Below are positions 61,893-64,000 of a stretch of DNA of 64,000 bases, one piece after another (position 1 is the stretch's first letter; each line of letters starts with the position of its first letter). The position numbers were made by a program, and so were the translations under genes. Under the pieces are notes generated by a model, which was given only the letters and a program-made list of their open reading frames with translations, was not told the origin of the DNA and did no database searches. Source of the stretch: an uncultured bacterium (GTDB taxonomy: Bacteria; UBA8481); the NCBI GenBank assembly GCA_964499705.1, contig CAZCME010000024.1:1-64000 (forward strand). Reading direction: 5' to 3'.

Positions 61893-61952
61893 TTAACCAC
61901 GAACCACACGAACATCTTAAAATATTTGTTTTTTCGTGTGGTTCGTGGTTAA
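61893..61952. repeat. Perfect 20-bp inverted repeat of 9-mer units (MITE-like), matching the IS subterminal repeat
   Basis: TTAACCACGAACCACACGAA-20nt-TTCGTGTGGTTCGTGGTTAA. Confidence 0.9.
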
Positions 61953-61970: not shown

Positions 61971-62213
61971 ATGACAGAACCAGTATCAGCCGACACGAAA
62001 CCCGTAGTCCTGGAACTCGAACCCGGAAATTACGCCTGGTGCGCCTGCGGCAAATCGGCCAACCAGCCATTCTGCGACGGCTCACATCGAGGCTCGGGCA
62101 TCACGCCGATCGCCTTCACCGTCACGGAGAAAAAGAAGGCCGCCTACTGCCTCTGCAAGCACTCCGCCAACAAACCGTTCTGCGACGGAACGCATAAGAC
62201 GATCTCGAAATAG
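61971..62213 (+). CDS. CDGSH iron-sulfur protein with two CDGSH motifs (MiNT/CISD3-like)
   Basis: WCACGKSANQPFCDGSH and LCKHSANKPFCDGTH; AGGAGG RBS. Confidence 0.93.
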   Translation: MTEPVSADTKPVVLELEPGNYAWCACGKSANQPFCDGSHRGSGITPIAFTVTEKKKAAYCLCKHSANKPFCDGTHKTISK

Positions 62214-62296: not shown

Positions 62297-62348
62297 AATG
62301 ATAAGGAGTTATCATTTTATTTGACGATAGGATGATCGCGTGTACAAT
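62297..62348 (+). promoter_or_regulatory. Fur-like palindrome followed by a sigma-70 promoter
   Basis: AATGATAA-GGAG-TTATCATT (62297-62316); TTGACG-16-TACAAT (62321-62348). Confidence 0.7.
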
Positions 62349-62354
62349 AGTCGC

Positions 62355-62648
62355 ATGCTCAGGCTCGGTCGATTCCTCCTTCTGCTCGCCATTTTCGTCG
62401 CGGCGATGCCGCTTATCCACACGCACGAGCTGGAGGCCGCACGCGGCGATCATGATGCGGAGCGCGACGCGCATGAGGGGAGCTGCCTTCTTACGGTTCT
62501 TCAAAAGTGCTGCGCTCAGCCTGACCTGCCCGCTCTTCTGGCGGACGATCCGGTCTTTCTCTCGTGGATGCCGGTTGCAGCATTCGCCGATGCCGAAGCC
62601 GCGGACATTCTCGATTTTTCCAGCCTCCGTTCTCCGCCTCTCGCCTGA
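62355..62648 (+). CDS. DUF2946-like His/Cys-rich leader protein ending in RSPP
   Basis: Signal-like N-terminus, IHTHE, H...H..SC, CC, C-terminal LRSPPLA. Confidence 0.7.
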   Translation: MLRLGRFLLLLAIFVAAMPLIHTHELEAARGDHDAERDAHEGSCLLTVLQKCCAQPDLPALLADDPVFLSWMPVAAFADAEAADILDFSSLRSPPLA

Positions 62649-62728
62649 TTCTCATCATCCACTCATTCCGCGTCTGATTGATCCGGCGCTCTTTCGCCGG
62701 TTCCGACTTACAGGAGAATCATGCAAAC

Positions 62729-64000
62729 ATGCGTATCATCATCTTTTCCGCGCTCAGCGTTCTGCTCTGCGCGAATCCGCTCCCGGTCCTCGCCTTGACG
62801 GACCAGGATGCGCGGGAACTCGTCGAAGAAGTGAGATCATTGAGGCGAGCGGTCGAGGACCAGAATCGCCGGATCGAAGAGCTGGAGGCGAAAGTCGCCG
62901 CAGGAGAACCGTCGGGAACGGAGGCGCCGACGCCCGAATCGCTCGGAGATGCCGGCCCGGCAGCCTCGACGCCATCCACGCCATCGGCGGGCAGCGTCGT
63001 CGGAGCGCGGCAGGCAGCTCAGCCGCAGATCGGTGTCGTCTTTGACGGCACTTACACGGCCGGAAAAAACGTCGCGGATGAAGCTCAGCTCCGCGCGATC
63101 GAGCTGAACGTCGGCGCTCCCATCGATCCCTATTTCGATCTCTTCGGCAAGCTCGTCTTCTCCGCGGATAACTCCGCCGCCTCCCCGCCGGAAGCGGCCG
63201 TCGAAAACGCCTACATCACCGCGCATCTTCCGCTCAATCTCGAGGCGCGCTTCGGGCTCGAATGGATTCCCTTCGGCGACGTCGGCACGCTCGACATCGA
63301 CGAGCATCCTCAGGTGGACCAGCCACATGCCATCGCGCAATTCCTCGGTGGCGAGGGATTGAAAGCGATCGGCGGCCACGTCGAGTGGCTCGCTCCGTTC
63401 GCCGCAAATCCGACGCTCTCGCTCACCATCGGCGCGTACAACCGCGCGACGGGCGACGCGAACACGACTGCATCCGACAAGGACGGCGACGGTGCGCCCG
63501 ACGCGCCCGACATGTTTCTCGACGAGGGAGCGTTCAACGTCCGCGACCGCGAGCGGGGTCCGCTCTGGTTCGGCCGCGCCGCTTCATACTACGAATGGGA
63601 CGCAGGCCACCATGCGATCCGCGTGGGCGGCTCGTATCTCTCGGACGAAAATGACGCAAGCGGAGCGACGCGAACGTCCGTCGCGGGGCTCGACGCGAAA
63701 TACCGATGGCGGCCCGACGCCACCGGCCGCGGGATCACTTTCGCAGGAGAATATCTCCATCATCGCCGCCAGGAATCGCCGACGACGCTCTTTCTCGCCA
63801 ATGGGGGCAATGACCTGTCCAACGGAGGCGGCTACGTCTATGGACAGTATGATTTCGACAAGCGCTGGGGGCTCGGTTACCGCTACGACAACACCAACAC
63901 GGCCTTCTCCGCCGCAAGCGAGATCGCGGCCCATTCCGTGTACGGCGAATATCGTCCGACGGAGTTTTCCCGCCTCCGCGCCCAGTATCGCCATGACGAT
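62729..64000 (+). CDS. Outer-membrane beta-barrel, metal-uptake porin-like; runs off the window and is absent from the ORF track
   Basis: Open frame of 424 codons from ATG 62729 (MRIIIFSALSVLL); coiled coil; IELNVGAPIDPYF, VENAY, FLGGEGL, GGYVYGQY, RPTEFSRLRAQY. Confidence 0.8.
   Translation, partial: MRIIIFSALSVLLCANPLPVLALTDQDARELVEEVRSLRRAVEDQNRRIEELEAKVAAGEPSGTEAPTPESLGDAGPAASTPSTPSAGSVVGARQAAQPQIGVVFDGTYTAGKNVADEAQLRAIELNVGAPIDPYFDLFGKLVFSADNSAASPPEAAVENAYITAHLPLNLEARFGLEWIPFGDVGTLDIDEHPQVDQPHAIAQFLGGEGLKAIGGHVEWLAPFAANPTLSLTIGAYNRATGDANTTASDKDGDGAPDAPDMFLDEGAFNVRDRERGPLWFGRAASYYEWDAGHHAIRVGGSYLSDENDASGATRTSVAGLDAKYRWRPDATGRGITFAGEYLHHRRQESPTTLFLANGGNDLSNGGGYVYGQYDFDKRWGLGYRYDNTNTAFSAASEIAAHSVYGEYRPTEFSRLRAQYRHDD

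Follow-up and report, generated by a model that had tools for sequence, protein, structure and literature searches.

Near the 3' end of a 64,000-nt stretch of DNA from an uncultured bacterium (GTDB lineage Bacteria; UBA8481; GenBank assembly GCA_964499705.1, contig CAZCME010000024.1, positions 1 to 64,000; hereafter the window), a 97-codon open reading frame (ORF) precedes the gene of an outer-membrane porin. Our analysis indicates, with a probability that we put at roughly 0.7, that this ORF encodes a regulatory, metal-sensing arrest leader of the CruR/CutF class. A first-pass annotation of the window, made from the letters alone, had proposed such a role: an exported peptide with His and Cys ligands and an RSPP tail would control a barrel that is not of the TonB type, in analogy with the Bordetella leader CruR and beneath a Fur-like box. 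As far as sequence analysis reaches, this interpretation is supported, although several of its details required correction. Unless otherwise stated, the features described below lie on the forward (+) strand and positions are those of the window.

The leader ORF (62355..62648) runs from an ATG at 62355 to a TGA at 62646-62648, and the gap between its stop codon and the ATG of the barrel gene (62729) is exactly 80 nt, as had been annotated. Its product of 97 amino acids (aa) starts with MLRLGRF, in which R3 and R6 are basic, followed by 15 hydrophobic residues. This basic and hydrophobic part (aa 1-21) was assigned by eye as an export signal, in agreement with the first reading. Seven His and Cys residues follow (H22, H24, H33, H40, C44, C52 and C53), among them the motifs H22-T-H24-E and C44-L-L-T. 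Past these ligands, a low-complexity and poorly conserved spacer leads to L-R-S-P-P-L-A-stop. The RSPP motif (aa 92-95, codons CGT TCT CCG CCT at 62628..62639) is present as proposed; it is near-terminal and not terminal, with Leu-Ala standing between it and the stop codon. By analogy with the CruR toeprint, as given in the excerpts of PMC12992588 available, a ribosome stalled at this motif would be expected to hold Pro94 in its P site and Pro95 in its A site. The GC content of the ORF is 0.75/0.44/0.67 by codon position, and searches of Pfam and NCBIfam gave no match for its product. A GTG at 62340 was rejected as an alternative start, since this position falls within the promoter.

Tails of this type are not rare by themselves. 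A six-frame reading of the genome gives 27,696 small ORFs. R[AGS]PP falls within the final 12 residues of 68 of them, and 3 of the 68 begin with a hydrophobic stretch as well. Besides the leader, two small ORFs that combine such an N-terminus with an R[AG]PP tail lie at C10:117709-118017 (-) and C18:47663-47989 (-). They end in RRAPPD-stop and PPRGPPPA-stop, respectively, and may be chance ORFs or further arrest leaders. Because of these counts, the single RSPP tail taken alone is not significant; the case is carried by its conservation across homologues and across barrel loci.

Close homologues of the leader are few. HMMER, run exhaustively against 1.84 billion representative proteins, returned two relatives besides the query itself (E 6.5e-6 and 9.8e-6), and a profile search added two more, giving four close homologues, or five family members with the window, at 29-38% identity. 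A word-based protein search retrieved the leader itself only. The five tails are RSPP-LA (window), RAPP-LA (G003, from the same GTDB family), RGPP-SYSI, RAPP-SFSI and RGPP-VPLV. Fifteen positions are invariant in the five (L8, L10, A12, F14, A16, P19, H22, H24, H40, C44, L49, S90, R92, P94 and P95), and all share an F/L-rich N-terminus and the patterns PL.H.HE, HE..C.L and R[S/A/G]PP, while the remainder of the C-terminal half is not conserved. The ligand set first proposed (HTH/H/H/C/CC) is thus retained in part: H22, H24, H40 and C44, whose codons lie within 62418..62486, are invariant in 5/5 members and are the candidate metal ligands, whereas H33 and the C52-C53 pair are not conserved. The window leader lacks a CxxC, as annotated, and the reading of CLLT...CC as a non-canonical site of its own did not hold, for CLLT is a derived form of the CxxC kept by most relatives and the CC pair is not conserved. 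In G003 and in a metagenome locus (L022), the leader stands directly before an orthologous barrel. Of the five species that stand for the phylum in the genome set, two carry the barrel.

Searches that started from the barrel, and so were independent of the leader sequence, gave access to far more distant leaders. A related-locus search with an 8-sequence barrel alignment returned one metagenome locus and three genome loci, and a barrel profile matched 85 of 401 diverse genomes (E <= 1e-8). The 28 best new barrel loci, each from a different genome and with 1.5 kb of flank, were surveyed. In 20 of the 28, a script detected upstream and on the same strand an ORF of 89-169 aa with an R[AGS]PP ending, and manual checking of the remaining loci added L040 (RGPP), L056 (RGPP, internal ATG) and L052 (KHSPPLA). 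Two loci, L036 and L054, have 228 nt or no upstream DNA and were unassessable. A same-strand His/Cys peptide with a C-terminal PP was present in 26/26 assessable loci: 22 with R[AGS]PP, one with HSPP and three without Arg. Conservation of the tail, a check suggested by the first-pass annotation, was therefore borne out, R[A/G/S]PP standing 1-7 residues before the stop codon in the five close members and in 22/28 distant barrel loci.

Alignment of the first 20 distant leaders revealed a hydrophobic N-terminus, an HxH whose first His is invariant, a CxxC with both Cys conserved at 90% or more, a variable spacer, an R-x-P-P in which R, P and P are invariant, then 1-7 residues and the stop codon. 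When compared with the profile of these 20 leaders, the window family aligned with a probability of 95.7% (E 8.6e-9), with HxH, Cys and RxPP in register. In the 23 leaders with DNA available, RAPP is the motif of 13, RSPP of 6 and RGPP of 4. First Cys and Arg stand 46-49 residues apart in 20 of the 21 leaders with C..[C/T/S/Y]; the value for the window leader is 48, and that for L059 is 53. An ORF comes next after the barrel in 24 loci, and in 19 of these it is of the ZnuA family. The leader-porin-ZnuA module occurs in at least 23 GTDB families, with a leader at every assessable locus, and is widespread, with a likely reach well beyond this genome.

This conservation bears on what the peptide is. 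A spurious ORF was ruled out by the presence of the peptide in all 26 assessable barrel loci. The ORF might encode a working periplasmic or membrane-anchored metal-binding protein, for example one passing metal from the porin to the binding protein, with the PP tail as a targeting pause. It is indeed the conserved first gene of a porin-ZnuA operon, and its His/Cys ligands would face the periplasm. However, the conserved parts are only the signal, the ligands and RxPP, and the spacer of about 45 residues varies, which is typical of leaders and not of folded proteins. In addition, RxPP, RSPP included, is among the most avoided tetrapeptides of proteomes (excerpts of PMC12992588), CruR itself escaped detection as a protein (excerpts of PMC9426467), and the CCUCC codon bias and Shine-Dalgarno pairing described below are RNA-level features. 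A working protein is, of the readings weighed here, the one to which we give least credence. Alternatively, the leader could monitor export or membrane insertion, as SecM, ApdA and ApdP do, or merely couple translation of the porin to its own, with the His and Cys residues serving a mature small protein. The N-terminal export signal is universal among the leaders, and peptides of the RAPP class are classically Sec/YidC monitors freed by translocation force, according to the excerpted text of PMC12992588. Against this, the downstream genes encode a porin and a metal importer and not Sec/YidC components. Moreover, HxH and CxxC are the most conserved elements after RxPP and stand at a fixed distance from the arrest site, as a force-transmitting ligand site needs, and the precedents of CruR and CutF link such motifs to metal sensing. 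An export monitor therefore seems very unlikely.

In the metal-sensing arrest that we favor, the nascent leader, exported or membrane-anchored, would halt the ribosome that is making it once RSPP is reached, a few codons short of the stop. The stalled ribosome would cover pyrimidine-rich bases that otherwise pair with the Shine-Dalgarno sequence of the porin gene, which starts 80 nt further on; the stall would thus open the porin ribosome-binding site, and the porin and the ZnuA/Azt-like ATP-binding cassette (ABC) importer would be made. The stall would probably also keep Rho off a stretch rich in C and poor in G. While on the nascent chain, the invariant ligands (HxH, His and Cys), at a fixed 48 residues before the arrest Arg, would bind the metal that is transported, which is most likely Zn(II), and binding would alter the tension on the chain and hence the lifetime of the stall. 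Because the operon is for uptake, the sign of control would be expected to be that of CruR: when metal is scarce the stall would persist and the operon would be on, and when metal is bound the stall would be released and the operon would be off. This post-transcriptional layer would sit beneath transcriptional control by a Fur-family (Zur-type) regulator at a palindrome upstream of the leader. What the analysis itself establishes is how the leader is built, conserved and spaced, which genes the operon contains, how the RNA is predicted to pair and how the porin is modelled to fold. The stalling, the metal, the compartment of sensing, the sign of control and any role of Rho are the parts of this mechanism that we infer.

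The predicted RNA structure fits an output of the CutF type, that is, the melting of a stem that holds the ribosome-binding site. The porin Shine-Dalgarno sequence (AGGAG, 62712..62716) lies 12 nt before the ATG, which is unusually far. Predictions for the free mRNA leave it 92-100% paired at the three closest loci, those of the window, G003 and L022 (92% in the window, or 74% in a different segment), with partners at or beside the arrest codons: 62629-62635 or 62648-62653 in the window, 1744-1750 in G003 and 511-517 in L022. The two alternative partners of the window, with pairing probabilities of about 0.31-0.39 and 0.47-0.55 respectively, belong to a pyrimidine-rich stretch (62629..62653) at the peak of the C>G bias. 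The stall footprint was set to 27 nt centred on the first Pro codon. Forcing it open raised the unpaired fraction of the Shine-Dalgarno sequence from 0.08 to 0.23 in the window, from 0.08 to 0.41 in G003 and from 0.00 to 0.50 in L022, compared with shifts of at most 0.05 for control footprints placed 30 or 60 nt upstream. Over 23 loci, the Shine-Dalgarno sequence was paired with a mean probability of 0.90, and at least 0.3 of this pairing fell in the stall footprint in 12/23 loci, versus 1/23 for each of two control windows. Codon choice points in the same direction. The first Pro codon is CCT in 12/23 leaders, whereas at their other Pro positions CCT makes up 29/164 codons (Fisher p = 0.0006), and owing to this preference the Pro-Pro codons often spell CCUCC, a perfect anti-Shine-Dalgarno sequence. 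An out-of-frame ATG at 62721, 4 nt past the porin Shine-Dalgarno sequence, opens a frame of 25 codons; it may be a decoy start or meaningless.

The base composition of the leader tail suggests a second possible output. The C>G bias of the window peaks at 62630-62669 (C 0.45, G 0.07), and the C>G bubble peaks at the leader stop codon in the window, G003 and L022. Across the barrel loci, C-minus-G at the leader tail is positive in 23/23, with a mean of +0.22, versus +0.04 in the 5' half of the leader and 0.00 in the barrel body. Since the tail is C-rich and G-poor in every one of these loci and Rho is encoded in the genome, a CruR-type contribution of Rho is possible. The leader could even work mainly in this way, the stall blocking the loading of Rho on the C-rich tail or intergenic region and its release leading to termination before the porin, with the Shine-Dalgarno pairing secondary or compositional. 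CruR, the closest system in spacing and tail, acts so (excerpts of PMC9426467), and an intergenic hairpin that could be a pause site is found in two loci. In the window this hairpin (CCGGCG-CTCTTT-CGCCGG, 62683..62700) has no T-run after it, and G003 has a hairpin of different sequence at the corresponding intergenic place. An intrinsic terminator between leader and porin was ruled out, given the missing T-run and the absence of any terminator call on the + strand. However, the intergenic region is only 38-52 nt long in L022, L033, L035 and L051, leaving little room for termination, and the C-richness comes largely from Pro, Ser and Leu codons. The CCT bias and the footprint-specific pairing favor translational control. 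Although both outputs are compatible, a mechanism working mainly through Rho is considered unlikely.

The gene under the presumed control of the leader (62729..64000, continuing to C24:64108) encodes a protein of 459 aa. A signal peptide comes first, then a long helix or coiled coil (aa 25-57), next a disordered linker of Pro, Ala and Ser, and last a barrel of 16 strands whose final residue is Phe. A first AlphaFold2 model based on 8 sequences was set aside (pLDDT 42.9) and no fold search was based on it. The model used here, obtained with 34 sequences, reached a pLDDT (predicted local distance difference test) of 82.3 and a pTM (predicted template modelling score) of 0.73, and displayed no plug. 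In a Foldseek search of the PDB with this model, OprP (2o4v) came first (E 5.4e-14) and OprO (4rjw) second (1.6e-13), followed by general trimeric porins; in the ESM Atlas, template modelling scores of 0.67-0.72 were obtained to clusters labelled Porin_O_P. The protein was assigned to no Pfam family and did not match the Porin_O_P model (PF07396); sequence searches in Pfam, NCBIfam and the PDB gave sub-threshold matches only (LbtU, BBP2, the N-terminus of FapF and designed coiled coils). A TonB-dependent receptor was defined by a 22-strand barrel, an N-terminal plug and a TonB box. The TonB-receptor signature is absent from the barrel protein, for which Plug and TonB_dep_Rec gave no match and the model has 16 strands without a plug. 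The modelled barrel is thus porin-type, with an OprP/OprO-like fold, and is not a TonB-type receptor, in line with what had been proposed.

Two public records call relatives of the barrel 'Zinc-regulated TonB-dependent outer membrane receptor'; judged by the model, this label is a misnomer as to fold. In the literature searched, the phrase 'Zinc-regulated TonB-dependent outer membrane' is used in work on Vibrio ZrgA. The resemblance to OprP and OprO of Pseudomonas aeruginosa (2o4v, 4rjw) lies in the 16 strands, the plugless barrel and the best structural match. The window barrel differs from them in sequence (12-14% identity), in its additional N-terminal coiled coil and Pro/Ala/Ser linker, and in its genomic partner, which is a metal importer and not phosphate genes.

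The importer genes were identified in the 12.7 kb examined beyond the window. Three genes lie directly 3' of the barrel gene. Their products are a binding protein of the ZnuA family (PF01297, E 3.6e-47), an ABC ATPase and an ABC-3 permease, whose best NCBIfam models are respectively AztC, AztA and AztB of a zinc system. The genome encodes a second ZnuA-family protein (contig C6), a lipoprotein of the TroA/MntC type with a different operator-like palindrome upstream. For this reason we infer that the window system is the likelier zinc importer of the genome. In the window family the conserved ligands make up a His3Cys set, and in most relatives a His2Cys2 set; both are typical Zn(II) sites. Because the operon content (ZnuA/Azt-like genes), the restricted box and these ligand sets point the same way, the metal sensed and transported is most likely zinc. 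In 20 loci, the binding protein that follows the barrel (e.g. L002 2118-3074) carries a motif near DRSMGDVHPxGNPH; these proteins look like a distinct ZnuA-family clade travelling with the porin and the leader.

Another metal, whether manganese, copper (as in DUF2946 proteins) or nickel/cobalt, is a minority possibility. PF01297 spans Zn, Mn and Fe binding proteins, and the manganese protein MntC is the second-best NCBIfam model for the window binding protein. A His-rich loop, the candidate marker of zinc specificity, is absent in all 20 binding proteins checked, and the Azt matches are all below the curated cut-offs. CxxC is a classical Cu(I) motif, the adjacent box-controlled cluster includes a NicO-like protein, and the sole Fur-family gene could be that of Fur itself. 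On the other hand, the three best matches all belong to the Azt zinc system, the TroA/MntC-type lipoprotein with its own palindrome exists elsewhere in the genome, and the box is found at three sites only, none by iron genes. The ligand sets are typical of Zn(II) sites. The 'zinc-regulated' naming of barrel relatives is annotation and not a test.

Transcription of the leader operon would start from a sigma-70-like promoter (TTGACG, 16 nt, TACAAT; 62321..62348) with 10/12 consensus matches; two promoter-like sites were found in the region, versus 0.4 expected from shuffles. With 6 nt between the end of its -10 hexamer and the leader ATG, the transcript would be leaderless or nearly so, as had been proposed. 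The leaderless start and separate promoter are nevertheless not family features, because in L022 the leader ATG overlaps the stop codon of the preceding gene (TGATG, L022 247-253). The product of that preceding gene, by eye only, resembles the C-terminus of a Lon-type protease.

A perfect palindrome, AATGATAA-GGAG-TTATCATT (N4 spacer, 62297..62316), lies 5 nt 5' of the -35 hexamer. A scan of the 4.67-Mb genome, allowing up to 4 mismatches, gave 11 sites, of which that at 62297 is the sole exact copy. The nearest copies, with 1 mismatch at C24:69879 and 3 mismatches at C24:69842, are both inside the 120-nt gap between a Fur-family gene and its divergent neighbour, and the other 8 sites all have 4 mismatches. 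This Fur-family gene (PF01475, E 5.7e-21) is the only one in the genome, 7.5 kb from the palindrome and about 5 kb past the ABC genes. Because the near-copies flank only this gene, the palindrome is probably the operator of the local Fur-family regulator, whose regulon would be very small; the label 'Zur-type' would follow from genomic context only. The Fur-like box of the first reading is accordingly a perfect palindrome in this organism, and it is no family feature, being absent at the loci of the relatives G003 and L022. In G003, a 21-nt perfect inverted repeat with arms about 80 nt apart (L004 1342-1362 and 1441-1461) was noticed, the second arm of which overlaps the presumed -35 of the orthologous leader; G003, which does not have the window palindrome, may thus use a different operator. 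The gene cluster under the near-copies (C24:69416-73940; L002 7416-11938) is a second one under the same palindrome. There, the Fur-family gene is divergent from that of a NicO/DsbD_2-like His-rich membrane protein, and the rest of the cluster encodes an ABC ATPase, an FtsX/MacB-type permease and a DUF3299 protein, with a further DUF3299 gene just before (L002 6826-7386). This cluster resembles the Zur-regulated PA4063-PA4066 system of Pseudomonas.

Several results weigh against a metal-sensing arrest leader as drawn above. In the peptide, the second Cys of the CxxC is missing in the window, which has CLLT where the close homologues have CVLT, CVLS or CPVA. The Arg is not universal: L042, L049 and L050 have clearly related His/Cys peptides with a PP tail without Arg, and L052 has His instead of Arg (HSPP). 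RSPP is only partly permissive in ApdA and ApdP, according to excerpts of PMC12992588. Directly upstream of two barrel homologues from deltaproteobacteria (34-35% identity), a leader is missing. As to the regulator, NCBIfam could not type the Fur-family protein as Zur. At the RNA level, the Shine-Dalgarno sequence pairs elsewhere than in the footprint in 11/23 loci. In the window, its pairing amounts to 0.28 with the strict footprint and to 0.44 with the rest of the intergenic region, including bases just 3' of the footprint. The window fold is no better than that of shuffled sequences (z = -1.3), and the same holds for L022 (z = -0.4). The pairing of the Shine-Dalgarno purines with Pro, Leu and Ser codons is partly a composition effect. 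Folding of the leader end and intergenic region, which the first-pass annotation had put forward as a check, thus gave a divided answer, with the predicted pairing at or beside the stall codons on one side and these z-scores on the other. The final point of this kind is the distance of the ligands, which stand 47-49 residues from the peptidyl-transferase centre. For comparison, in the excerpts of PMC4571824, the Zn-dependent folding of a nascent Cys2His2 domain (ADR1a) abolishes SecM arrest when placed 24-26 residues from the arrest point. The same experiment is, in favor of the model, a physical precedent for an arrest released by zinc.

A distance of 47-49 residues is too far for folding inside the tunnel. 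It corresponds roughly to the tunnel plus the translocon channel, which suggests that the metal may be read in the periplasm, as in CutF. A more specific and tentative model can be drawn from this. The leader would be a zinc sensor at the translocon, with its HxH at the periplasmic end of the signal anchor and its Cys motif emerging beside the HxH as the ribosome reaches RxPP. Periplasmic Zn(II) bridging both would close a loop, pull on the chain and free the arrest, whereupon CCUCC would pair again with the porin Shine-Dalgarno sequence. We find this model possible but less likely than not. If true, it would provide a natural counterpart of the ADR1a-SecM experiment and reveal a widespread, undescribed layer of zinc homeostasis, in which the leader would read periplasmic zinc and Zur cytoplasmic zinc. 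It would also define a dedicated family of OprP-like zinc porins.

A few further features were noted around the leader operon and in the surveyed loci. Between the atp operon and the leader operon, 61971-62213 encodes a protein of 80 aa that contains two iron-sulfur motifs of the CDGSH type (PF09360, E 1.9e-23), with no link seen to the leader. The DNA between atpH and this CDGSH gene holds an inverted repeat (61893-61952; TTAACCACGAACCACACGAA ... TTCGTGTGGTTCGTGGTTAA) that is perfect over 20 nt. A close look-alike is found 5' of the second ZnuA-family gene (near C6:219100-219300), and the repeat resembles a dispersed palindromic (REP-like, i.e. repetitive extragenic palindromic) element. Finally, in a deltaproteobacterial metagenome-assembled genome (L024 2400-2843, minus strand), a 148-aa His/Cys-rich exported ORF ending in KHGPPYVS-stop is followed by a 553-aa protein without a Pfam family and then by ZnuA. 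This unit is divergent from a leaderless porin homologue and constitutes a second architecture tying PP-tailed leaders to ZnuA; HGPP is a published arrest motif.

The family membership of the leader was assayed against DUF2946, the family of CruR. Neither the window leader nor its four close homologues matched the DUF2946 model (PF11162, gathering threshold 23.7 bits) at E <= 1, nor was the leader matched in a genome-wide scan at E <= 10. Of the 23 barrel-linked leaders, five gave sub-threshold scores (best 19.7 bits, E 0.0015) and none passed. In a profile comparison with one DUF2946 protein, the window family aligned over RxPP alone, with a probability of 1%; these results also weigh against the main interpretation. 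With the 20-leader profile, the same single protein aligned from CxxC to RAPP with a probability of 21% (E 0.001), and in the ESM Atlas the nearest named cluster to the leader is DUF2946 (0.94). Compared with the features of that family, the window leader has no CXXC, has the C-terminal RAPP as the variant RSPP, and has the Cys-arrest spacing (in the family, 45 residues intervening after CXXC, within 1-2). DUF2946 had 2 matches in 151 genomes and none in 88 genomes of the G075 class, with an over-strict threshold and an ill-suited taxon, and no plasmid match. Altogether, the leader is probably not a DUF2946 member but a distant relative that would work like CruR and CutF.

The literature searched yielded no description of a zinc-linked or porin-linked arrest leader, and there znuA or zinc was not tied to CruR, CutF or arrest peptides. 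In the available text of the two most relevant papers, 'zinc', 'Znu' and 'porin' are absent from the main text of PMC9973294, and 'zinc' and 'porin' from that of PMC12992588; the supplementary lists may include members of the clade. Metal sensing by a nascent peptide is so far established for copper only (CruR, CutF), with bioinformatic hints for nickel and cobalt; His-rich clusters beside Ni/Co genes were already noted in the CutF-like survey (PMC9973294). If confirmed, the present system would extend ribosome-arrest sensing to zinc, and would give a widespread, unnamed family of porins, now mislabelled as TonB receptors, both a function and a regulator. It would also represent a compact natural design in which the same Pro-Pro codons are both arrest motif and anti-Shine-Dalgarno sequence. 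The passage of zinc across the outer membrane is poorly known in most bacteria, and the leader-porin-ZnuA module makes this question testable.

Three groups of known systems can be compared with the leader. RxPP (x = G, A, S or P) is an established EF-P-resistant arrest core, as stated in excerpts of PMC12992588. The window leader shares with ApdA, ApdP, ApcA and SecM a C-terminal-side R-x-P-P core, an N-terminal localisation signal and the control of the next gene. It differs from them in that they monitor Sec/YidC and have no conserved metal ligands, whereas the genes downstream of the window leader are for metal import.

CutF of Rhodobacter capsulatus is exported co-translationally (PMC9973294). 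The leader agrees with all four rule-based features of CutF-like proteins given there: fewer than 150 aa, a PP among the final 15 residues, a signal at the N-terminus and, within 1000 nt downstream, a gene on the same strand. The proposed output is also the same, a stall that would open the downstream ribosome-binding site. In CutF, copper strengthens the stall, turning a detoxifying enzyme on, and the stalled ribosome opens the stem in which the next ribosome-binding site is otherwise hidden (excerpts of PMC9973294; bioRxiv 10.1101/2025.02.05.636593). The window operon, however, is for uptake, so the opposite metal sign would be expected.

The closest parallel is CruR (Bp2923, DUF2946) of Bordetella pertussis, the leader of bfrG. 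As described in excerpts of PMC9426467, CruR has a CXXC at 90-93 and a RAPP at 139-142, three residues from its end. Its stall keeps bfrG on by blocking Rho, copper relieves the stall, and a 5-residue change in spacing impairs regulation. Its arrest was shown in vitro, with Pro codons in the P and A sites (excerpts of PMC12992588). Like CruR, the window leader is a small exported peptide, first in a metal-uptake operon and before an outer-membrane transporter, with an R-x-P-P 2-3 residues before the stop and a C-rich, G-poor tail. The analogy proposed at first pass is strengthened by the spacing: the Cys motif stands 48-49 residues before the R-x-P-P in both, the offset being 49 in CruR (C90-R139) and 48 in the window. 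The window leader differs from CruR in having Cxx[T/S], an invariant HxH and a further His where CruR has CxxC, and RSPP instead of RAPP. Its transporter is a 16-strand porin and not a TonB-dependent receptor, followed by ZnuA/Azt-type ABC genes and not by a PepSY protein. The intergenic region is 80 nt long versus 162 nt, and a helix predicted to mask the Shine-Dalgarno sequence is present in the window. The expected logic would nevertheless be shared, with the stall turning the operon on and the metal, probably zinc here and not copper, turning it off.

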